Source of the DNA: Candidatus Wukongarchaeum yapensis
GTDB lineage: Archaea > Asgardarchaeota > Wukongarchaeia > Wukongarchaeales > Wukongarchaeaceae
DNA length: 10,350 nt
Assembly: GCA_016840425.1 (NCBI GenBank)
Contig: JAEOSI010000060.1
Location: 1 to 10,350 of the forward strand
Direction: 5' to 3'
The stretch's first letter is position 1; each line of letters starts with the position of its first letter. The notes under the pieces were generated by a model. The model made no database searches and was not told the DNA's origin. It saw only the letters and a program-made list of their open reading frames with translations. A program made the translations under genes and the position numbers. Shown in pieces: positions 1-10,350 of this stretch.

Positions 1-323
1 CCATGTTTTGTCTCAGTTATTATCATTTTTTGTCTCATACGAATAATAGAGCGTGCTTCACGCAAAATAACTTCAACATGACTTGGAGGCTTATCAATCA
101 ACTTGGTAATACTACAAGCAAACTCTGAGGGAGAAACCTTTGTTAAATCGATAACGCGTCCCCCAGCCGTTGAAACAATTTTAGAAGTAACAACAAGAAC
201 ATCCCCCTCCTTAAACCCTCCAACATTTTTCTCAGCAGAACTAATTAAAATCTCAGAAACATCATCACCAATCTTTACAATCGGTGTAGGTAAAGGAAAT
301 AAACCTATCTCCATCATCTTCAT
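1..323 (-). CDS. cofE: Coenzyme F420-0:L-glutamate ligase, N-terminal part (truncated by the left window edge; not in the ORF track)
   Basis: Manual translation from ATG at 323 (alternative ATGs at 317 and 314): MKMMEIGLFPLPTPIVKIGDDVSEILISSAEKNVGGFKEGDVLVVTSKIVSTAGGRVIDLTKVSPSEFACSITKLIDKPPSHVEVILREARSIIRMRQKMIITETKHG. This carries the CofE hallmarks P-x-(V/I)-x-x-GDD, GD(V/I)LVV(T/A)SKIVS-x-A-x-GR and ITET(K/R)HG. An AGGGTTG purine tract precedes the start. Confidence 0.9.
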   Translation of the reverse strand, partial: MKMMEIGLFPLPTPIVKIGDDVSEILISSAEKNVGGFKEGDVLVVTSKIVSTAGGRVIDLTKVSPSEFACSITKLIDKPPSHVEVILREARSIIRMRQKMIITETKH

Positions 324-620
324 CAACCCTAAAAACCGAAAAACCAGCCCCTATTTAAAAACTATAACATTATTTATAATGGGATAAATAACAAATCCTT
401 ACCAAAAAACGACTGAAAACATCAAAAAATGCTAAAAAATGAAGATTAAGAAAGAATAGTCAGATTAAATTAAAGATATTAAGAAGCTTTTAACTATTTT
501 AAAAGATTAAAAAAGAGAAAGAAAAGCTAAGTGCTTTTTTTTGCTATTTTCTTGATTTTTCTACTTACACTCAGCTTTAAAGCAGTCATTATCATTATTT
601 AAGATGTTTTAATTTTTGTT

Positions 621-1610
621 TTAGCCGAATTTGGGCTTGATGCTTTCACCAAAGATCTCTAAGGCTCTCTTCTTTTTCACACCTATCGGACTGCCTACCA
701 CGAACTGTGTTACGCCTGCCTTTTCCAGCGCTTTTATCCGGTCTATGCAGTCGTCCGCTTTTCCAGCCACTGCAAAAGCGTTAATCATATCTTCAGTTAC
801 ACTTCCGAAAGCCGTGCCGAAATCACCTTTTGCAATTGCATCCTTTATTTTATCTGCATCGCTTACGGCTATACCATGGTGTTCTAAGACGGGAGGCGGC
901 GAACCAGCTACTATAAACGCAACCACGGATGAAGCTTCTTTTCTTGCAGCTGCCGCATCATCATCTACTGAGAAACACGTATAACCTACAACATCGACAT
1001 CGCTTAAAGATTTGCCAGCAGCTTCGCAACCTTCTTTTATATTAGGCAAAGCTACATCAAAATCTTTCGGACTTGAAGCATTAATCAAAACGCCCTCGCC
1101 ATATTGGGCTGCTGTTTTAAGCATTTTTGGTCCCTGAGCACCTATATAAATCGGGATACTTCTTTTGGTTTTAAAGTTAAATTTCGCGCCAGAAATCTCG
1201 AAAACTTGACCCTTCAGTTTAGACTTTTCGTTGTTAAGGAGCGTGCGGATTATTTGAACCGCTTCTTTAACCGCAGTTAGGGGTTTTGTCCAAGGAATAC
1301 CTAACTGTGCTAGGGTGGCCTTATCACCTGCTCCAATACCGAAGACAGCTCTACCGTCTGAAACTTCATCTATAGAAGCTATTGCGGCAGCCGTCCAGCA
1401 AGGATTGCTAGTATAAGGGTTAGTTACACCAGTACCGAGAAGCAGTTTTGAAGTTTGAGCGGCGATAGCGCCTAAGGAAACATACACGTTACGGTTGTTA
1501 TAGTGATCAGTCACCCAACAGAATTCAAAACCTCTTTGCTCTGCATCAACCGCAGTTCCTACTAATTTCTCAATTTTAGTTGCAGGCAATAACTCTATTC
1601 CAAATTTCAT
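621..1610 (-). CDS. mer: F420-dependent 5,10-methylene-tetrahydromethanopterin reductase (luciferase-like TIM barrel)
   Basis: 329 aa with the Mer motifs MKFGIE, W(V/I)[47 protein letters not shown] and [21 protein letters not shown] lies 10 nt upstream. Confidence 0.95.
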
Positions 1611-1620
1611 AGCGATTTTT

Positions 1621-1626
1621 CCTCCT
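1621..1626 (-). promoter_or_regulatory. Shine-Dalgarno site of mer
   Basis: cctcct on the + strand is AGGAGG on the - strand, 10 nt before the ATG at 1610. Confidence 0.75.
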
Positions 1627-1849
1627 TATTTAACAAGTTTTAAAATTTTTAGAAAAATATTTTCAGCATTTTCTAATTTGCGCGCCTTTTTTTAATTTTT
1701 TCGATTTTTACGCGAGAATTTAACACTTTATTTTTTCAAAAAAAGAGTTTTCAGCGACTATTTAGGCAAATAAGGATTATTAAAGGTTAAAAATGTTTCG
1801 GCAAAAAATAGGTTATAGAAGGGAAAATCGAACAAAAAAATAAACATTT

Positions 1850-1951
1850 TTAAGATTCGAATAGTTCAAGAAGTTCTTTTTCGTATTTTTCTTTCAGTTC
1901 TTCAAGTTTTATTTTCACTTCAGGATTGTTCGGCGTTTTTAAACAGGTCAA
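1850..1951 (-). CDS. Candidate 33-aa small protein or pseudogene remnant
   Basis: TTG start, translation (M)TCLKTPNNPEVKIKLEELKEKYEKELLELFES-TAA. It has an amphipathic E/K/L helix pattern and purine-rich codons like the real genes here. No clear RBS and no ATG start. Confidence 0.3.
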   Translation of the reverse strand: MTCLKTPNNPEVKIKLEELKEKYEKELLELFES

Positions 1952-2139
1952 AAGATTTACAGCGTTTATTCAAACCTAAAAAAACGGGGTATTTTTCAGT
2001 TAATTGATTTAAAAATAACTCTATAAATTGAGAATAGGTTTTTCTAAAAACGCCAAAAATCAACTTTAATTTGGGATAAATGATTATGTGAATTGTTCTG
2101 CCCTTAAGGAAGGGTTTTCTTATATCTTAATTATTAAAA

Positions 2140-4401
2140 TTATTTTAGATATGCAGTCTTTTGATAGGGCTTTATGCTTTTTTTAGTAAGTAGAATAAAT
2201 GCTAAGATAAATAAGAGGGCAAAAGTCCCTGAAATTGCTGTCCCGATTAACCCTATCGTTCCTTCCTGAATTGCAAAAAATATAGACGTGGCTATTAATA
2301 CTGTCGCTAGAATCAGGGTAAGAAGCGGGACGTACTTTGGCATTTCAATCTTAGAACGGCGGAAAAATATCTCTATCGGTTTTTTCTGTATGAATATTCT
2401 TTCAACAGTTTTTCCTAGCTTAACTTCCTCGCTCCCTACCTTTAGACTAAATTCTATATTGAGGGGGAAGTCTCCGAGTGCTAAAGGTTTAGCCTGGAAC
2501 TTTATCTCCTTTTTTTTCCTCTCTAATATCTCCTTTATTCTTATTTTTAAGCCGGTTGGGATTATTTTTAAAGCTGTGCATGCAGGCATGATTTTAATAA
2601 CCCCTTCAGAAACTATTTCTGGATTGATTTTTTCCATTTCTAAAGCTTCTGGAGGTTTTTTAATGGAAATTCCGATCTCGTAATCTCCTTTTATGGCCAT
2701 CCTCTGCCAATAAATTATTTCGCAGTGTTCCTTAATCATCTTCCTCAATTTTTCAGCAATAGCTTCTAATTCAGCTCCTTCCTCCAGCATACTAGGAGTA
2801 GTAATAACCTCTTCCTCCTCTTCTTTAACCTTTTCAGCGGCCATAATCTCCTCTTCAGGGACTTCCCTCTCAACTATTTCTTCTTCTCCTATGGTCTCCA
2901 TAACCTCCTCTTTTTCAACAACTTCTATGGCCTCCTCCACAGGAGCTTCTTCCAGTTCCTCTTCTTCCCCTATTTCTAATATTTCCTCTTTTGGTTGCCA
3001 AACAATTTTCTCTTCTCTCATCATTGATAGGGCTTTGGTAAGATCTTTTGATAGTGTTTTCATTTGCTCTTTAAGCATATCAGTATCCTCAGAAGAGGAA
3101 AGAAGGGGCGTAATTATGCGAGGAGTAGTTTCAGGGATAGAAGTTTCAATTTCCCCAAGAGAAGGTTCTGCACCTATTTTTATGGAGACAAAAACATTGC
3201 TTATCGGATACTCTATGCTTAAAACGTGTTCAAGCTCAATAGCCTCTTCTCCCACATAGTAATCTTTTTGAATCTTCTCCATTTCAGGAAGCATCGTCTC
3301 GATTTTTGGATAACCTACCAACGTAGGCATAACTACCCTAGGTCTATTTTCCCCAGAAAAACCTGCTTTTGTGATATCAGCTCCTATATCCAATATAATC
3401 GGGACTTCAAAAGTTTCAGCTATCTTTTCAGTTTCAGGATCAGGAGACGTGCTCATAATCGTTTGAAACCTTTTCTCTTCAATTATCGAAACGCCCTTCT
3501 CCTCAAATGCTTTCTTTGTTATCCATAACCTGTTTGATGTTTTAATGGAAGTAAGAATGCTTGCGCCAACCCACTCTCCATGTTGAGATTCTGCGGGTGC
3601 AAGAATTTTAGCCTTGTAATTTTTAGGCAAAAGCCTTTTTAATTCCTTTAAAAGCCTCTCCTTCAAACCTGGTAAAGCACTTATTTCCCCAGAAACTACG
3701 ACTGATTCCACGATTTCTTTACGTAGATCATCATCACATCTATCCACTGCTTCCACTATCGCTTCAGGCAGCGATTTTTCGTCGATTTCACCTATAGAGG
3801 GGGTGAAAAGGATTTCGGGTGCCATAAATCGTTCAGCATTAAGCGTTATTATCTCCCCAAAAGGAGTCTCATAAACCTTTTCTATAGCCTCGGGTTTTTC
3901 CGCAATTTTAACTTCTTCATCAAAGTCTAAAGATACATAACAAAACTTTTCCTTAATATCTTTCAAAAATCTCTTTTCTGGACCCGTTGTAAATAACATA
4001 CCTTTTTCGCCCAGAAGTTTTTCAAGAGTTTTCGTAATTGTTTTACCACCAAGTTTAAGAGAAACCATGGCTTCAACTATCGGCCTTGCATCTTTAATAG
4101 GCACAATTTCAGTAAAGTCTTCCCCTATATTAACGATAATACCTGTAACTTTCCCTGTACTAAAAAGCGCAAGAACGTTTTTATCCAGCAACATTACTGC
4201 AGGAACATTTATTCTTTCAAAACAAAACCTTACCAAGGTTTCTCTTTCGCTTTTCGTAATCATCACGGAGTCTGGGAAAACGAGGGGATGAAGAGTAGAT
4301 TCCACACGAAAGGTTTCTTGAAGAATATAGTTGATCATTTGCTCTAAAGCATCCCAATTTTTAATAGCTCTAACAGGGAAAACCTTACTTATCGCCATCA
4401 C
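2140..4401 (-). CDS. Circularly permuted, membrane-anchored actin-related protein (actin fold + acidic stalk + predicted beta-sandwich + 2 TM helices)
   Basis: aa ~7-312 match actin ~68-375: NWDALEQM~NWDDMEKI, FERINVPA~FETFNVPA, DIKEKFCYVSLDF~DIKEKLCYVALDF, ERFMAPEILFTP~ERFRCPETLFQP, WITKKAFEEKGVSIIEEKRF~[20 protein letters not shown]. aa 334-401 match actin ~7-72: IILDIGADITKAGFSGENRPRVVMPTLVG~[29 protein letters not shown], and QKDYYVGEEA...LSIEYPI~QKDSYVGDEA...LTLKYPI. Hydrophobic segments occur at aa ~691-710 and ~715-738. Start is GTG 4401 or ATG 4398, after GAGGGTTGA. Confidence 0.9.
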   Translation of the reverse strand: MMAISKVFPVRAIKNWDALEQMINYILQETFRVESTLHPLVFPDSVMITKSERETLVRFCFERINVPAVMLLDKNVLALFSTGKVTGIIVNIGEDFTEIVPIKDARPIVEAMVSLKLGGKTITKTLEKLLGEKGMLFTTGPEKRFLKDIKEKFCYVSLDFDEEVKIAEKPEAIEKVYETPFGEIITLNAERFMAPEILFTPSIGEIDEKSLPEAIVEAVDRCDDDLRKEIVESVVVSGEISALPGLKERLLKELKRLLPKNYKAKILAPAESQHGEWVGASILTSIKTSNRLWITKKAFEEKGVSIIEEKRFQTIMSTSPDPETEKIAETFEVPIILDIGADITKAGFSGENRPRVVMPTLVGYPKIETMLPEMEKIQKDYYVGEEAIELEHVLSIEYPISNVFVSIKIGAEPSLGEIETSIPETTPRIITPLLSSSEDTDMLKEQMKTLSKDLTKALSMMREEKIVWQPKEEILEIGEEEELEEAPVEEAIEVVEKEEVMETIGEEEIVEREVPEEEIMAAEKVKEEEEEVITTPSMLEEGAELEAIAEKLRKMIKEHCEIIYWQRMAIKGDYEIGISIKKPPEALEMEKINPEIVSEGVIKIMPACTALKIIPTGLKIRIKEILERKKKEIKFQAKPLALGDFPLNIEFSLKVGSEEVKLGKTVERIFIQKKPIEIFFRRSKIEMPKYVPLLTLILATVLIATSIFFAIQEGTIGLIGTAISGTFALLFILAFILLTKKSIKPYQKTAYLK

Positions 4402-4560
4402 TCAACCCTCAAAATAGGAGTAGGTGAACTCCTCAATTCCTTAATCATTTCAAATAAACACTAAACTAAAATCTATGCCTTGGCTAAACCCTACCTAAAC
4501 TATTGTTTATCTAAGTCTCCTTTATTAATCTTTTTAAGTTTATTTACCTTACAAAACCTT

Positions 4561-4600
4561 AAAAAAATCCACAAAATAAAATTAGGAGAAAGAAGAAGTT
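4561..4600 (-). terminator. Possible archaeal oligo-T terminator downstream of nadC
   Basis: Minus strand reads ...cttcttctttctcctaattttattttgtggattttttt, a pyrimidine/T-rich tract about 80-120 nt after the nadC stop. Confidence 0.3.
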
Positions 4601-4678
4601 TGTGATCTACCAGTTTATCGCCTTTAAAACTTATTATCAATTTTTTAAAAACCAGTTTCTAAGTTTTTTCATATGGAA

Positions 4679-5527
4679 TTAAACGGGTTCAAGTTTTAGG
4701 GAGAAATCAAGGGCTGGGGCTGAATGTGTAATACACCCCATAGAAATCACGTCGACACCCGTTTTCCCAAACTCAGCAATATTTTCGAGAGTTACGTTAC
4801 CAGAAACTTCAATAATCACTTTATCACGCAAATTTTCTTGGCTGATAAGCTTCAAAGTTTCCCTTATTTTTTCTGGTGGAAAATTGTCAAGCATTACTAT
4901 ATCTGCTCCCGCCTTAATCGCGGTTAAAGCATCTTCAGAACTCTCTACTTCTACTTCTACTTTTTTCACAAAACTTATCCTTTTTTTTACTTCTCCAACC
5001 GCTTTTGCTACGTCGCCTATAATGGCTAAATGGTTTGTTTTAATCAAAACACAGTCATCAAGCCTATATCTGTGTGTATCTCCCCCTCCATTTTCTACCG
5101 CTTTTTTTTCCATAAAATGCATATCTGGTAACGTTTTCCTTGTGGCAGCTACGCGGGTATTTAAACCTAATTTTTTTAATTCCGAAACTGCTAGGAAGGT
5201 TAAAGTAGCAATGCCAGACAGATGCATTAAAAGATTTAAAGCGACACGCTCTCCTAAAAGGATAGATTTTGCAAGTCCCTCAAGCTCCATTACTTTCTCC
5301 TCTGAAACAACCTTATCTCCATCAAACTTTAAAACACGCACCTTAACACCCAATAACTCAAACAGTCTTGAGGCATATCTTACCCCAGATAAAACCCCCT
5401 CCGACTTAGAAATGATATAACCTCGAGTTTTTTCGCCTTCAGAAATCACGATATCCGACGTTAAATCGCAAAAACCCACATCTTCCTCTAAAAAACGAAG
5501 AAGCAACTGATCAATTATGGGGTTCAT
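4679..5527 (-). CDS. nadC: Nicotinate-nucleotide diphosphorylase (carboxylating), i.e. quinolinate phosphoribosyltransferase
   Basis: 282 aa with L-x-EDVG-x-x-DLTS, LLGERVALN, ATRKT-x-P, HRYRLDDCVLIKTNH, VEVEV, ADIVMLDNF, IEVSGNVT and GVDVISMG-x-ITHSAPALDFSL. AGGAGA RBS at 5537-5542. Confidence 0.96.
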   Translation of the reverse strand: MNPIIDQLLLRFLEEDVGFCDLTSDIVISEGEKTRGYIISKSEGVLSGVRYASRLFELLGVKVRVLKFDGDKVVSEEKVMELEGLAKSILLGERVALNLLMHLSGIATLTFLAVSELKKLGLNTRVAATRKTLPDMHFMEKKAVENGGGDTHRYRLDDCVLIKTNHLAIIGDVAKAVGEVKKRISFVKKVEVEVESSEDALTAIKAGADIVMLDNFPPEKIRETLKLISQENLRDKVIIEVSGNVTLENIAEFGKTGVDVISMGCITHSAPALDFSLKLEPV

Positions 5528-5589
5528 AGTCCATAATCTCCTTAAGCTTAGTTAAAAGGGTGTTAAGAACTTGGAACAAACATAATGTG

Positions 5590-5641
5590 TAAGAGACTCT
5601 TCTATCGCTTTAATATAAGAGACTCCTCTATTGGTTTAATA
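5590..5641. repeat. 26-bp tandem direct repeat (2 copies, 23/26 identical) between nadA and nadC
   Basis: taagagactcttctatcgctttaata (5590-5615) followed immediately by taagagactcctctattggtttaata (5616-5641). Confidence 0.9.
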
Positions 5642-5649
5642 CATGTTTT

Positions 5650-6582
5650 TTAGCTGCTTAGTTTTAACATTTTTTTGATCGCTTTTTCTACCTTTTCCGC
5701 TATTTCTTCAGGAACTGAAATGATTTTGTTTTCTTTTTCTAGAACTTCTACTATCTTTTCTAAGTTGATTCTTTTCATTTGGCGGCATATTGCTGTAGAT
5801 AAGGCGGGAATAACCTTTTTTCCGGGTAATGTATACTGTAATCTTTCAATAAGCCCGATTTCGGTAGCAATTATAACGGTTTCGCTATCTGTTTCTTTGG
5901 CAAATTTTATGAGTTGGGCGGTACTTCCAATAAAGTCTGCAATTTGTTGAAGTTCAGGATCACATTCAGGATGAACTGCAAGAACAGAATTTTCATAACT
6001 ATCTTTTAAATCTAATACCCTATCAATTTCAAACGTTTTATGAACGTAACAATAACCTTTCTTGGGATAGTTTATCACTTTCACGCCTGACTTTTGAGCG
6101 GCAAACCATCCTAAATTAGCATCTGGGCCAAAAAGAACCTTGTTATCTTTAGCAACCGCTTTAGCGATTTTAGGCGCATTAGAGCTTGTACAAATCACAT
6201 CACACTCAGCTTTAGTCTCGGCAAGAGTGTTAATGTAAGCAACAAAAGGTATGTTTGGATGCTCTTCTTTAGCGCGAATTACTTCTTTTGGAGGCAGTTG
6301 AGCAGCCATGGGACAACGTGCACTTAAATCCGGTAAAAGAACGCTTTTATCAGGGTTCAGAATGCTCGCGGTTTCGGCCATGAAATCAACGCCACAAAAG
6401 CATATAATATCCGCATCATGAGCGTTTTGAGCAGTTCTTGCAAGTTCCAAGCTATCTCCCACAAAATCTCCCACTTGCTGAACCTCGAAAGGTTGATAGT
6501 TGTGAGCCAAAATGATGGCGTTTTTCTCCTCTTTCAACTGATAAATTTTCTCTTGAAGCTTCTGTATCTGTAAAGTTTGCAT
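5650..6582 (-). CDS. nadA: Quinolinate synthase A ([4Fe-4S])
   Basis: 310 aa with ILAHNYQ, GDSLELA, FCGVDFMAETA, CPMA, AYINT, CTSSNA, FGPDANLG, CYVH, HPEC, GSTAQL, TEIGL and C-x-x-MKRI. The three cluster-ligating cysteines are present. Confidence 0.96.
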   Translation of the reverse strand: MQTLQIQKLQEKIYQLKEEKNAIILAHNYQPFEVQQVGDFVGDSLELARTAQNAHDADIICFCGVDFMAETASILNPDKSVLLPDLSARCPMAAQLPPKEVIRAKEEHPNIPFVAYINTLAETKAECDVICTSSNAPKIAKAVAKDNKVLFGPDANLGWFAAQKSGVKVINYPKKGYCYVHKTFEIDRVLDLKDSYENSVLAVHPECDPELQQIADFIGSTAQLIKFAKETDSETVIIATEIGLIERLQYTLPGKKVIPALSTAICRQMKRINLEKIVEVLEKENKIISVPEEIAEKVEKAIKKMLKLSS

Positions 6583-6709
6583 GGTAGAAACCTCTGGACA
6601 TCCTGTTAACTTTTATAGTAACTTTTAAAACAAGTTAGGGCTAACATTAATATCCGACTAAAAAATAAAAATATCACCATTTATAGATATCTTTCGCTTT
6701 AAAAGTTTA

Positions 6710-6715
6710 AGGAGG
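6710..6715 (+). promoter_or_regulatory. Shine-Dalgarno site of the FrhB/FpoF-like gene
   Basis: AGGAGG 8 nt upstream of the ATG at 6724. Confidence 0.75.
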
Positions 6716-6723
6716 ATTACTAA

Positions 6724-7785
6724 ATGAGTGATGTAGACGAAGGATTCGATGTATTAAAAGAATTCGTTATAGATAGAGGTACATGCTGTGGTTGTGGCTT
6801 GTGTGTCACTATGTGCACCAAAGGCTTAATTGCTTTTGACGGAATCCCAAAACTTGTAGGTGAATGCACGGAATGCGGAAGGTGTAACTGGAATTGTCCA
6901 AGACTCCCTTCAGCAGAAACTGGCGAGGTCATCCCTTCAGTGCCCAAGGCTGAAAACGCTACAGAAGACGAATTAATCGGGCCATATAATGAACTATTGG
7001 GCGGAGAAGCTGTTAAGAACGAGATTTTAGAGCGGTGTCAGGATGGTGGTGTAGTTACGGCGATCTTGTGTGCTTGCTTAGAGAGCGGGTATATTGATGG
7101 GGCTATTGTTACTGGGATTGATCCTGGACATCCTTGGAAGGCTAAACCGATGGTGGCTACAACAACGGATGAGATAATAGCTGCAGCAGGCACGAAATAC
7201 CTATACCCTGCAGAGCTCTCCATGATCAAAAAGGCCATAAAAGAGTCAAAGCTTGAAAAAATCGCCGTTGTTACAAGACCTTGTGGCGCCCAAGCTGTCA
7301 GGAAAATGCAAAATTCCGATAAAAAAGCCATTCAAAGAATGGGCGAAAAGGTCAAACTACTTTTAGGTCTTTTCTGCATGGAAAGCTTTTCAGACGATTT
7401 TCTGCAAAAAGAAGCTGCAGAAAAGAGAGGAATAGCTTTAGAAGACATAAAAAAAGTTAACATTAAAAAAGACTTCATAATAACTCCAAAAGCCGAAGAA
7501 AACGTTGTTATACCGATGGACGAAGCTTCCTCTTACATCAGAGACGGCTGCCACTTTTGCGCAGATTTTGCTTCAGAGTATGCTGATGTTAGTTGCGGAG
7601 CCGTAGGAACAAAAGAAGGTTCATCCACAATAATAGTACGCAATAATACAGGCAAAGAAGCTGTAGAACTTGCAACCAGCAACGGATGGCTCAGCACAAG
7701 AACCGTTTCAGAAAAAGCCCTAAAAGTACCACAAGCCCTATCTAAACGCAAAAAAGAACATGCAAAACCCATACCTTCAAGATAA
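6724..7785 (+). CDS. Coenzyme F420 hydrogenase/dehydrogenase beta-subunit family protein with N-terminal 2x[4Fe-4S] ferredoxin domain (FpoF/FqoF-like architecture)
   Basis: N-terminal CxxCxxCxxxC twice (CCGCGLCVTMC and CTECGRCNWNCP). FrhB-family motifs: QDGGVVTAIL, AAGTKY, VVTRPC, LGLFCMESF and CHFCADF-x-S-x-x-ADVSCGAVG. Confidence 0.9.
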   Translation: MSDVDEGFDVLKEFVIDRGTCCGCGLCVTMCTKGLIAFDGIPKLVGECTECGRCNWNCPRLPSAETGEVIPSVPKAENATEDELIGPYNELLGGEAVKNEILERCQDGGVVTAILCACLESGYIDGAIVTGIDPGHPWKAKPMVATTTDEIIAAAGTKYLYPAELSMIKKAIKESKLEKIAVVTRPCGAQAVRKMQNSDKKAIQRMGEKVKLLLGLFCMESFSDDFLQKEAAEKRGIALEDIKKVNIKKDFIITPKAEENVVIPMDEASSYIRDGCHFCADFASEYADVSCGAVGTKEGSSTIIVRNNTGKEAVELATSNGWLSTRTVSEKALKVPQALSKRKKEHAKPIPSR

Positions 7786-8310
7786 AAAAATAAACAAAAT
7801 AAACTCCACACACAAAAATCGACTAAAACATGCTAAATTTTTATTTTATCCATGTGGGCGAGAAGGCTCCATACAGAAGGATAGAGATGAAAACCCGCAG
7901 GCCTTAGATATGCCGGTTTTCTATACCCTAATAAAACAGCCTTTTAGGCTACATGCTCAAGAGCAGGACTGTCCTATGCCTGGATCATGTATAAATGGAA
8001 GTGAACCAGCTCAAAACTCCCCCAATGGACAGTGAACTTTTAGAGATTCAGCATGCGAGAGAAGAAGTTCCCCGCAATATCTGAGATTAGTTCACGAAAT
8101 ATCGTTGCAAAAGAGCTTATACTTCCACAAAAAAGTAGAAAGCGATGAAATGCAACTAAAAACAAAACGCTTTCCTACTTCCCTATTTTTCGCCCCCTCT
8201 AAGCCCATCCTACCTTCATTCACCATTTCGCTAATGGAAAGTGGGAAATGTTTTTTTATAAAAGAAAACATAAAAAAGCATGTTTTTTGAAGATGAGGAT
8301 TGTGTGAAAA

Positions 8311-10020
8311 TTGGGTAACAAAAGGGAGAAAAAAAAGGAAGAGGAATTAGTTGAAGAAGAGGGGGAAGAGGAGGAAGAGGAGGAAAGGGAAGAAGAAGTA
8401 GAGGGAGAGCTTGAGGAAGAAGAGGAATTAGTTGAAGAAGAGGAGGAAGAGGAGGAAAGGGAAGAAGAAGTAGAGGGAGAGCTTGAGGAAGAGGAACCTC
8501 TTGTCTGGGAAGAAACGGTATGGAAAACCACGCCTGTTAAGATTGGGGAAGAAATCGAGGAAAAAGAAGAAGGAGAAGAGGAGGTAGAGGTAGGAATACC
8601 AACAGAAGAGGAAATAACGATAAAAGTAGAGTCCCCAACACCCATAGAAGAAGAGGAGTTAGAAGCTTTAATAGAGGAAGAAGAGTTAGAGGAAGAGGAA
8701 GTTGGTGGAGAGTTAGAAGAAAAAATAGAGAAGATATTGGAGAAGCAGGTAGAGCAAGTTAGTGAAGAAGTAGAGGAAGAGGAGTTACTAGAGGAGGAGG
8801 AAGAAGAAGAGGAGGAAGAAGAAGAGGAGGAAGAAGAAGAGGAGGAAGAGGAGATTGGTGAAGAAGTAGAGGAAGAGGAGTTACTAGAAGAGCGGGAGAT
8901 AGAGGACAAACTTTCAAAAATTGGCATATCTTATGAAAAAGATGTCATGGAAACAGTAAAACCAAAACCTGAAGACATCTTTGAAGAAATACTTAATGAC
9001 CAAAAAAGCATTTATGAAAAAGTAATAGAAACGATAAAAGTGCCATTACCCCTCTTTTTGCCAATTTTTATCTTGATAGTATACGGCTTATTTTCAAGCA
9101 CGATCAATTTTTACGGTAATTCAAAAGACTGGGATCTACTATTAGAGGATTGGGTAACTCCATTTTTAATATCCGCCGCCATAACCTCTATGTGGGGTTT
9201 TATCATCATAGGTTCAAGAACAGCAAGGAATTTTTATTATGAGATTAACGACCAGGTTAACGCGCCGAAAAAAGCTTTTCAAAAGCTTTTCTTAAAAGAG
9301 GTTAAAAAATTTTTAAAAGATTGGAAAATCCCCATATTAGGCCTCTTTATTGCCCTAGGCGCCGTTTTGCTTGTAAGATCCAGTAGCAGCTGGTACTCCT
9401 CAAAAGTTGCCACAAACACCCACTACGTCGTTTTAGGTCTTTCGTTCTGGTTCCTCAGTATTGGTCTTGGGATACTTCTTAGAATGGTGTCTTTTACAAG
9501 ATCAATGGGGGGAGTAAATTTCCACGTAAACTTTTTCCACCCAGATGAAAATGCAGGTCTCCTACCTTTAGGGAACCTAAGCCTAAAAATTGCGTCCATG
9601 ATCGCCATAATTTTCAGCCTCCTAACAGCAGGCCTCGTCGGGATTTTAGATAAAAGCGGGAACGATGCTAATAAACTCATCTTATGGAGTTTCCCCCTAG
9701 CCTGTGTTATTTTATCTGTTTTTCTTTTCATTTCCCCCCTATTTAGCTCTCACGATCTTATTGTAAAAGAAAAAAAGGCGGAAATGTTAAATTGGAAAGG
9801 TAGTTACGGAAAACTTGCAAAAGAATTCTTCCTCTACCTAACCGAACACAAAACCATAGATCTACAGACAGGGATAGGCATTCAAGTCCTAAGTAACATA
9901 TATCGGGAGATAAAAAAGGTGCCTAATTGGCCTTTTAACACAAAAATTATCATGAAATTAACTTTGATTGCGCTACTCCCCCTTCTAACATTCCTATTTA
10001 CAAAAGAAATAATCATTTAA
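8311..10020 (+). CDS. Uncharacterised polytopic membrane protein with a ~200-aa poly-glutamate N-terminal region
   Basis: 569 aa from a TTG start (in-frame TGA at 8305-8307 upstream; first ATG is at 8947). aa 1-201 are about 56% Glu by hand count. About 7 hydrophobic segments follow from aa ~245, with FHPDENAGLLPLG and PNWPF motifs. Confidence 0.8.
   Translation: MGNKREKKKEEELVEEEGEEEEEEEREEEVEGELEEEEELVEEEEEEEEREEEVEGELEEEEPLVWEETVWKTTPVKIGEEIEEKEEGEEEVEVGIPTEEEITIKVESPTPIEEEELEALIEEEELEEEEVGGELEEKIEKILEKQVEQVSEEVEEEELLEEEEEEEEEEEEEEEEEEEEEIGEEVEEEELLEEREIEDKLSKIGISYEKDVMETVKPKPEDIFEEILNDQKSIYEKVIETIKVPLPLFLPIFILIVYGLFSSTINFYGNSKDWDLLLEDWVTPFLISAAITSMWGFIIIGSRTARNFYYEINDQVNAPKKAFQKLFLKEVKKFLKDWKIPILGLFIALGAVLLVRSSSSWYSSKVATNTHYVVLGLSFWFLSIGLGILLRMVSFTRSMGGVNFHVNFFHPDENAGLLPLGNLSLKIASMIAIIFSLLTAGLVGILDKSGNDANKLILWSFPLACVILSVFLFISPLFSSHDLIVKEKKAEMLNWKGSYGKLAKEFFLYLTEHKTIDLQTGIGIQVLSNIYREIKKVPNWPFNTKIIMKLTLIALLPLLTFLFTKEIII
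8338..8490 (+). repeat. Intragenic tandem duplication (81-bp and 72-bp units)
   Basis: EEELVEEEGEEEEEEEREEEVEGELEE (8338-8418) and EEELVEEEEEEEEREEEVEGELEE (8419-8490) are identical at DNA level apart from a 9-nt indel. Confidence 0.9.
8762..8888 (+). repeat. 31-bp direct repeats flanking a (GAGGAGGAAGAAGAA)x3 minisatellite within a run of 21 Glu codons
   Basis: gtgaagaagtagaggaagaggagttactaga occurs at 8762-8792 and 8858-8888. The 15-mer is repeated three times at 8794-8838. Confidence 0.88.
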
Positions 10021-10229
10021 AGATAAACTTTTAGATTAAAAAAACCTATTCTAAAAACTAGAAAAAAACATCACTATTTCTCTATAAATATGACATAAAC
10101 AAAAGACTAATATCTCACCTAAAAAAGTCTTTACGTGAGGTTTTCAAAGCGATAAAATCTACGTAAAATTAATATTTGAGACAATCAAGCAAAAAAGAAA
10201 CCAACTAAAAAAGAAACTTGAAAATATTC

Positions 10230-10236
10230 GAGGTGA
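10230..10236 (+). promoter_or_regulatory. Shine-Dalgarno site of mch
   Basis: GAGGTGA (canonical archaeal SD) 7 nt before the ATG at 10244. Confidence 0.75.
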
Positions 10237-10243
10237 AAAATTA

Positions 10244-10350
10244 ATGGTTAGCGTAAACACTCAAGCAACCAAATTAATAACCGAATGCATGATGAAAGAT
10301 CTAGAGCGGATAAATTGTCGAGCAACCAAGTGGAGCAATGGTGCAACTTG
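10244..10350 (+). CDS. mch: Methenyltetrahydromethanopterin cyclohydrolase, N-terminus (truncated by the right window edge; not in the ORF track)
   Basis: MVSVNTQATKLITECMMKDLERINCRATKWSNGAT resembles the Mch N-terminal pattern M(V/L)SVN-x-x-A-x-K(I/L)...(L/E)NG(A/S)T(V/I)ID. It has a strong SD and lies near mer. Only 35 codons are visible. Confidence 0.8.
   Translation, partial: MVSVNTQATKLITECMMKDLERINCRATKWSNGAT

Follow-up and report, generated by a model that had tools for sequence, protein, structure and literature searches.

A circularly permuted actin with a predicted membrane anchor in Candidatus Wukongarchaeum yapensis

Results

The permuted gene

We analysed a stretch of 10,350 nucleotides from the metagenome-assembled genome of the Asgard archaeon Candidatus Wukongarchaeum yapensis (contig JAEOSI010000060.1, positions 1 to 10,350; hereafter the window), in which one gene on the minus strand encodes an actin with its two sequence blocks in swapped order. 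This open reading frame (ORF), P0001, occupies window positions 2140-4401 as one continuous frame of 753 amino acids. Its probable true start is the ATG at 4398, which gives 752 residues; the GTG at 4401 lies one codon further out. Orthologues begin MAISK, and the ESM Atlas sequence begins at residue 2. A GAGG motif that may act as a Shine-Dalgarno sequence is found 8 nucleotides upstream of this ATG (4407..4410, minus strand), and the AT-rich intergenic region of approximately 270 nucleotides upstream of the motif contains no actin remnant in translation.

The features of P0001 are all read from the minus strand. The protein opens with a relic of actin strand 65-72 (residues 1-11; 4369..4401), recognised by comparing the motifs KVFPV... 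and LVYPI.... It is followed by a C-block (residues 12-312; 3466..4368) equivalent to actin residues ~75-375, which contains the remainder of subdomain 1, subdomains 3 and 4, and the actin C-terminus. A joint (residues 313-333; 3403..3465) composed of QTI, Met316, and about 17 further residues leads into the N-block (residues 334-405; 3187..3402), equivalent to actin ~5-72, with the phosphate-1 hairpin and subdomain 2 including the D-loop. Subdomain limits and residue roles are used here as they are generally known from actin structures.

The Pfam Actin profile (PF00022) scores 288.8 bits against P0001, where the cut-off is 27. Searched as separate pieces, residues 12-311 match profile positions 69-409 (E = 5e-74) and residues 334-405 match positions 6-70 (E = 1.4e-12), so that the two stretches together span 6-70 and 69-409. 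In all nine members of the family, which comprises subfamily A (including P0001) and a paralogous subfamily B, positions 69-409 precede 6-70, in violation of the collinear domain order of actin. A phmmer search of PDB sequences matched every actin as the same two stretches in swapped order. Residues 13-312 align without gaps to yeast actin 76-375 (i.e. within the C-block, the actin number is the P0001 residue plus 63), and residues 335-404 align to actin 8-75. The best match is 9wc4, the ‘HC1 actin’ of the cultured Hodarchaeales strain HC1 (E = 1.4e-88). By these alignments, the blocks abut at actin residues ~72-75, are complementary, and jointly make up one actin. The profile and sequence comparisons therefore confirm that the ORF encodes an actin sequence with swapped block order, i.e. 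a circular permutant.

A first-pass annotation of this DNA, made from the letters and translated ORFs, had proposed the permutation, and most of its description stands. It placed residue 312 at nucleotide 3466 and residues 334-401 at 3402-3199, as we find. It also took the two blocks to form one actin, in agreement with the abutting Pfam and phmmer alignments, and each block matches PF00022 in its own profile run, a check that it had suggested. The joint of about 21 residues that it described lies at residues 313-333, between the old C- and N-terminus in the alignments, and its placement of the new termini in the His73 sensor loop holds too, the alignment breaking at actin ~72-75. One correction concerns the far end: the ORF does not close at nucleotide 3199, where the annotated feature ends, and the frame continues for about 350 residues to 2140.

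In two-chain structure predictions the N-block docks in an actin-like way, a likeness that may owe something to solved actins known to the predictor. The alignments for these predictions included the matching parts of canonical actins, and three runs were made. Residues 322-412 dock on residues 1-318 with an interface score from aligned errors (ipSAE) of 0.82, against 0.00 for the best of three controls; of 80 solved complexes, 58 attain this mark, as do 2 of 110 mismatched pairs. The runs have at least 96 per cent of contacts in common, with a partner predicted local distance difference test (pLDDT) score of at least 80. The surest contacts join residues 38-42 with 334-338 (actin 101-105 with 7-11) and amount to strand pairing within the sheet of subdomain 1, between its first strand and the neighbouring one. 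In the same two-chain model, the helix at residues 277-281 (actin 340-344) contacts the N-terminal hairpin, and residues 6-16, which begin in the relic, touch residues 397-407.

Authenticity and selection

The genome is a metagenome assembly of 2.16 Mb in 277 contigs. Its contig C185 encodes a normal actin, and contig C97 a subfamily B paralogue with the same block order and approximately 46 per cent identity to A; a sister species in the same genus (G002) has permuted A, permuted B, and a normal actin. Full-length orthologues with this order were also found in independent assemblies from JGI, ENA, Logan, and NCBI; the NCBI orthologue is annotated as ‘hypothetical protein, Candidatus Hodarchaeota archaeon’. 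The 753-residue frame is intact in at least five assemblies, and that of paralogue B is intact too. Fourteen studies, which sampled marine sediment, marsh, and mangrove, have runs that contain the gene stretch.

Two runs other than the probable source run yield contigs that cross the junction at 3402-3466: one from X4 (2561-4312) and one from X7 (3154-3754), both without joints, indels, or loose ends. The first-pass annotation had named a failure of reads to span this junction as the sign of a chimeric assembly; the crossings are clean, and five independent assemblies and the paralogue have the same order.

Both blocks are under purifying selection. The ratio of non-synonymous to synonymous substitution rates (dN/dS) in subfamily A is 0.20-0.34 for the C-block and 0.05-0.21 for the N-block, the lowest of the gene, and in subfamily B it is 0.13-0.20 and 0.09-0.14, respectively. 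The beta-sandwich and membrane hairpin described below also have dN/dS well below 1, and the joint is near neutral in subfamily B (dN/dS about 1). Synteny is kept around the A copy, which is adjoined by nadC, nadA, and an FrhB-like gene. The gene is real, chromosomal, and under selection.

Truncated copies and lost active-site residues do give the family a degenerate appearance, as would be expected if P0001 were the decaying, functionless remnant of two tandem actin genes. We regard this as very improbable, since the 753-residue frame is intact across assemblies, a second paralogue is intact, the synteny is conserved, and dN/dS is well below 1 in both blocks, the sandwich, and the hairpin. 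A chimera of two actin genes, for which the fragmentation of the source genome might speak, is next to impossible when independent assemblies agree, contigs from other runs span the junction, the 46 per cent identical paralogue has the same order, and the sister species carries both permuted genes. We also considered, and rejected, that circularisation of the transcript restores the normal order, as happens for permuted tRNA genes. The reading frame has no break, the conserved tail follows directly on the N-block, and no joints were observed.

Joint and origin

Canonical Asgard actins end in ...IHRCF and start with a Met and roughly 7-20 residues before (K)PxVxD. In A, QTI, Met316, and about 17 residues stand between the old C-terminus (...EEKRF) and PIILD. 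In B, the sequence reads ...HQKR-K-M, i.e. the Met stands one residue past the old C-terminus, and about 16 residues separate it from PIVID. In phmmer, the joint of A also pairs with the N-terminal extension of HC1 actin. Because the old C-terminus precedes a Met and an extension-length stretch before PIILD or PIVID, the joint resembles the start Met and N-terminal extension that a second actin copy, lying downstream, would have left behind, which would make it the relic of a head-to-tail fusion. In A only, a strand is duplicated at the two new termini (KVFPV at the N-terminus, EYPI at the end of the N-block), and the overlap is as expected from independent trimming of two fused copies; B is without this relic. 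The similarities in these relics are those of short motifs judged by eye, without statistics.

These features suggest a route in which two head-to-tail genes of lokiactin type (the canonical actin of Asgard archaea) fused. The first copy would have lost residues ~1-70 and the second everything past ~72, and the old C-terminus would therefore have been joined to the Met and N-terminal extension of the second copy. A single permutation event would have been followed by duplication into A and B, with accelerated evolution. We built a tree from the ‘un-permuted’ heads of the family, nine Asgard actins, and thirty-eight other actin representatives, with no labelled actin-related proteins (Arps). 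A and B form one clade (Shimodaira–Hasegawa-like approximate likelihood ratio test 99) whose position among Asgard actins is unresolved, on long branches (stem 0.44, A 1.0, B 0.29). Between the same two genomes, canonical actin is identical at 368 of 374 positions (98 per cent) and permuted A at 83 per cent.

Distribution and novelty

In a profile search covering 1.84 billion representative proteins, only two full-length clusters at 50 per cent identity were found, A and B. A junction-spanning query against 400 Asgard genomes, for which the best 150 of 1,064 matches were listed, found the permuted order in one genus only among those listed; junction-spanning matches score highest and so stand at the head of the list. 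The search for the same domain order that the first-pass annotation recommended has turned it up in the sister species as well. Some apparently junction-spanning matches (e.g. G137 and G002:C44) read through stop codons and were set aside as weak extensions into upstream DNA. These listed matches likewise included no intermediate in which full-length actins stand in tandem or are fused. In G001, from the only other family of the order, two near-identical canonical actins lie on contigs C42 and C5 (L010, L012), and there is no permuted copy.

The next junction-bridging matches in the protein search (P0009, P0013, P0111) are eukaryotic actin-actin gene models of 740-830 residues, with two actins head to tail, and were rejected as permutants. 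They are EukProt MAKER models, with Anaeramoeba ignava and A. flamelloides as sources, and they share the architecture of the presumed permutation intermediate. No other actin-actin fusions turned up, and these may be either true fusions or merged tandem genes.

Subfamilies A and B are 38-47 per cent identical and differ in the D-loop, plug, and W-loop. The B gene of the W. yapensis genome (contig C97, L002:1-1713, minus strand) is cut by the contig end. A short stretch of contig C22 (19-492) matches residues 596-749 of P0001 and is probably the missing sandwich and hairpin tail of B. NCBIfam gave only sub-threshold actin-like matches, and neither P0001 nor P0006 (subfamily B) matched an FtsA or MreB model there; in Pfam, MreB_Mbl has a sub-threshold match to the B paralogue of the same genome.

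We know of no described natural actin whose fold is encoded out of order, and the first-pass annotation likewise knew of no natural circularly permuted actin. A literature search for ‘permuted actin’ found no papers, searches on related terms gave nothing relevant, and recent papers on the Asgard cytoskeleton and on structure surveys are silent on it; the searched literature is incomplete, with subscription journals under-covered, so an earlier description is possible.

Active site

All nine family members carry Q137K, S155I, H161E, D154N/S, and D157E/Y, with G158 replaced. The same is true of N12I/M, a replaced G15, the loss of R335 and K336, V339E, and G343A. In A, the C-block changes are Q137K (K74), D154N (N91), D157E, G158D, H161E (E98), G302E, and K336Q, and the phosphate-2 loop reads NIGEDFTE, as against DSGDGVTH in the canonical actin of the same genome; the catalytic Q137, D154, and H161 and the DxGDG motif are absent. 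The phosphate-1 loop of A keeps D11, G13, and K18 and has N12I, S14A, and G15D; in B, G15 is E or K. Both K213 and E214 of the adenosine pocket are kept, as is G302 in B. Canonical actins of the same genomes keep all of DNGTG, Q137, DSGDGVTH, and SGGST. Because Q137, D154, and H161 are replaced and the phosphate loops are altered, loss of actin-type ATP hydrolysis is likely, and the permuted proteins probably have no actin-like ATP turnover.

C-terminal tail

Downstream of the N-block, residues 406-469 (2995..3186, minus strand, as for all of the tail) form a Ser/Thr/Pro-rich segment followed by a predicted helix. This part is conserved within subfamily A only and has no family match. The next segment is an acidic low-complexity spacer (residues 470-560; 2722..2994) with 40 per cent Asp and Glu and a net charge of -27; its length varies among orthologues. 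A beta-rich domain (residues 561-690; 2332..2721) is conserved in both A and B, with W565, R567, M568, and C608 invariant. It is modelled by AlphaFold2 as an immunoglobulin-like (Ig-like) beta-sandwich followed by two helices (mean pLDDT 65 for the tail, 73-85 in the core). Foldseek searches with this model returned generic Ig-like, PapD, MSP, CARDB, and macroglobulin domains only, with template modelling (TM) scores of 0.25-0.45. An ESM Atlas feature search with the tail reached unnamed Asgard clusters, the best at 0.88, which is under the level that counts.

Among AlphaFold DB clusters (A0A524DJ52, A0A497R462, A0A849WH45, and others), STAS, TIR, and anti-sigma antagonist heads sit on a similar sandwich and two-helix tail (TM 0.3-0.45). 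As a lead only, the models hint that this tail may be a reusable membrane-tether module.

The protein ends in two hydrophobic helices (residues 691-740; 2182..2331) that are predicted to form a membrane hairpin. They cover residues ~691-711 and ~715-740 and are separated by a loop of 4-5 residues (QEGT), with Kyte-Doolittle windows above 1.6 at residues 685-701 and 714-726 and flank charges of +2 and +5. The two-segment hairpin, of predicted transmembrane length and with charged flanks, is conserved in A and B. A basic C-terminal tail (residues 741-753 and the stop codon; 2140..2181) has a net charge of +5 and is predicted to be cytoplasmic. Basic flanks of membrane segments face the cytoplasm under the positive-inside rule. 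Because P0001 has no N-terminal signal sequence and both hairpin flanks are basic, the actin part, spacer, and sandwich should be on the cytoplasmic side.

Surfaces

The two halves of the actin surface differ in how far they have moved from canonical actin. Paralogue B is 72 per cent identical to the canonical actin of its own genome in subdomains 2 and 4, and 49 per cent identical in subdomains 1 and 3 (odds ratio [OR] 2.7, P = 3e-5). Comparisons between canonical actins have no bias towards subdomains 2 and 4 (OR 0.6-1.6). The D-loop region of B is nearly identical to that of lokiactin. Changes at the barbed-end cleft are family-wide (Y143F/I, A144S, F352S), and the old C-terminus, which now bears the joint, sits at this cleft.

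Neighbouring genes

The permuted actin is flanked in the window by genes for methylene-tetrahydromethanopterin (H4MPT) reductase (Mer; 621-1610, minus strand, 460 bits), quinolinate phosphoribosyltransferase (nadC; 4679-5527, minus strand), quinolinate synthase (nadA; 5650-6582, minus strand), and an FrhB/FpoF-like F420 subunit with an N-terminal ferredoxin part (6724-7785, plus strand). No operon partner emerged among them. MCH is encoded on the orthologous contig as well, so the organism seems to have an H4MPT C1 pathway. The ORF cut off by the edge of the window (3-326, minus strand) may encode F420-0:gamma-glutamyl ligase (CofE).

At the other end, an ORF of 569 residues (8311-10020, plus strand) has an N-terminal half of about 230 residues of poly-Glu and a multi-helix hydrophobic C-terminal half, with no Pfam or NCBIfam match. 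Its acidic region is reminiscent of the spacer in P0001, and an orthologous JGI contig (L034) has a 551-residue gene with no recorded family in the same place. A poly-Ser ORF at 8256-8927 was rejected as a gene, being the opposite-strand mirror of the poly-Glu ORF.

Discussion

The explanation that we favour is that P0001 and its relatives are fusion-derived, membrane-anchored, permuted pseudo-actins that act on lokiactin; taken whole, we give it an even chance. The permutation, its conservation, the residue changes, and the domain layout are observed, whereas the membrane topology, the loss of ATPase activity, and the binding to lokiactin are inferences from them. Under this explanation, the two-helix hairpin would hold the actin module at the cytoplasmic face of the membrane by way of the Ig-like domain and the acidic spacer, the latter serving as a flexible stalk. 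Docking onto the barbed end or face of ordinary lokiactin would be through the still actin-like pointed-end half (subdomains 2 and 4, with the D-loop), and the docked pseudo-subunit would tether, and probably cap, lokiactin filaments at the membrane. That a membrane-fixed pseudo-actin subunit docks on lokiactin in this way is a tentative proposal, to which we give somewhat less than even chances. A further step, in which A and B jointly form an inbuilt site where lokiactin filaments attach to the membrane or are nucleated, and represent the first described natural circular permutation of a cytoskeletal ATPase fold, is more doubtful still.

Several results weigh against the favoured explanation. 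A single-chain AlphaFold2 prediction of residues 1-412 from the nine-sequence alignment was unusable (pLDDT 32), and because it failed, the fold rests on sequence and the two-chain prediction. The first-pass annotation had named docking of the N-block into subdomains 1 and 2 of a predicted structure as a test, and two separate chains do dock in this way; the two-chain docking (ipSAE 0.82) attests likeness only, and the predictor may have remembered solved actins. Nucleotide binding may survive, given that D11, G13, K18, K213, and E214 are kept. In A, the asymmetry between the surface halves is only a trend (OR 1.4, P = 0.14), and its D-loop and W-loop are diverged. The permuted family evolves approximately ten times faster than canonical actin, which would also fit a role without actin binding. 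The neighbours (nadC, nadA, the FrhB-like gene, and mer) are housekeeping genes and give no cytoskeletal hint. Finally, the RNA signal is limited to five short contigs inside the gene, from run X20 (an RNA library labelled as a leaf-litter metagenome), which lie at window positions 2595-2836 and 3533-3970 and are 97-99 per cent identical to the gene. These contigs are compatible with transcription; DNA carry-over is possible, and we did not count them as expression.

The best-surviving alternative is that the permuted actins polymerise by themselves, or A with B, into a membrane filament or lattice independent of lokiactin, in the manner of MreB and FtsA. An actin fold with a linker and a membrane anchor is the general design of those proteins, and purifying selection on both blocks and the retention of two paralogues per genome would suit it. 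We nevertheless find self-assembly unlikely: the residues for ATP hydrolysis, on which the dynamics of every known actin-like filament depend, are replaced, the barbed-end cleft is changed across the family (F352S, A144S, Y143F/I), and A and B are only 38-47 per cent identical, with different D-loops, plugs, and W-loops.

Less probable again is an A-B heterodimer that mimics the short-pitch actin dimer and nucleates lokiactin at the membrane as an Arp2/Arp3-like seed. Here the barbed-end half, which is the growth side of Arp2/3-type seeds, is the more diverged half, and the A and B genes are unlinked. In favour of the seed are the exact number of two paralogues, which occur together in each of the two genomes of the genus and also within one metagenome sample, and the prediction that both lie in the same membrane. 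Slightly behind this, we place a membrane-tethered decoy or scaffold that recruits actin-binding proteins (profilin, gelsolin, ADF-H) or unrelated partners instead of filaments. Lost catalytic residues and fast evolution are common to many pseudoenzymes and would be in keeping with a decoy, yet profilin, gelsolin, and cofilin bind the barbed-end cleft, which is the altered surface and the one that bears the joint.

Actin is among the most conserved proteins. The family described here indicates that its fold can accommodate chain ends moved to the His73 sensor loop as well as a covalent link between residues 375 and 1, which could be useful for protein engineering (tags, sensors, and split designs) and for studies of actin folding. 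With its visible fusion relics, the family would be a clear case of permutation through duplication. As an apparent lineage-specific invention of Asgard archaea, it bears on how actin filaments meet the membrane and shape protrusions, and a membrane-fixed paralogue without the ATP-hydrolysis residues is a concrete candidate for the link between actin and membrane. If membrane-fixed docking on lokiactin is correct, a close prokaryotic relative of eukaryotes would have built a direct link from actin to membrane out of actin itself.

The route to permutation has parallels elsewhere: in saposin and swaposin and in some DNA methyltransferases, tandem copies likewise fused and were then trimmed at both ends. 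To our knowledge, and in the literature searched, there is no report of duplication-fusion permutation in actin or any other cytoskeletal ATPase. In the permuted actins the traces of this route are visible as the internal start Met with its extension and the duplicated strand relic.

FtsA and MreB combine the actin fold with a flexible linker and a membrane element, and FtsA has a rearranged subdomain layout. They differ from the permuted family in that they reach the membrane with amphipathic helices instead of a transmembrane hairpin, bind ATP, and are not circular permutants. Arp2 and Arp3 are diverged, paired actin paralogues that dock as pseudo-subunits and do not form filaments themselves. 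The permuted family, too, consists of two paralogues, but Arp2 and Arp3 are collinear with actin, keep ATP binding and hydrolysis, and are soluble members of a seven-subunit complex; in our tree, which had no labelled Arps, the permuted family groups with Asgard actins. A further counterpart is lokiactin, the canonical Asgard actin (contig C185 in the W. yapensis genome; PDB 9wc4). Family members are 39-57 per cent identical to the actin of their own genome, with homology across the whole fold, and have in common with it the Asgard-type insertion of two residues in the D-loop region and the motifs DIKEKLCY and GLKERL. Lokiactin is collinear, with Q137, D154, H161, and the phosphate loops intact, whereas the family is permuted and fused to a spacer, a sandwich, and a hairpin.

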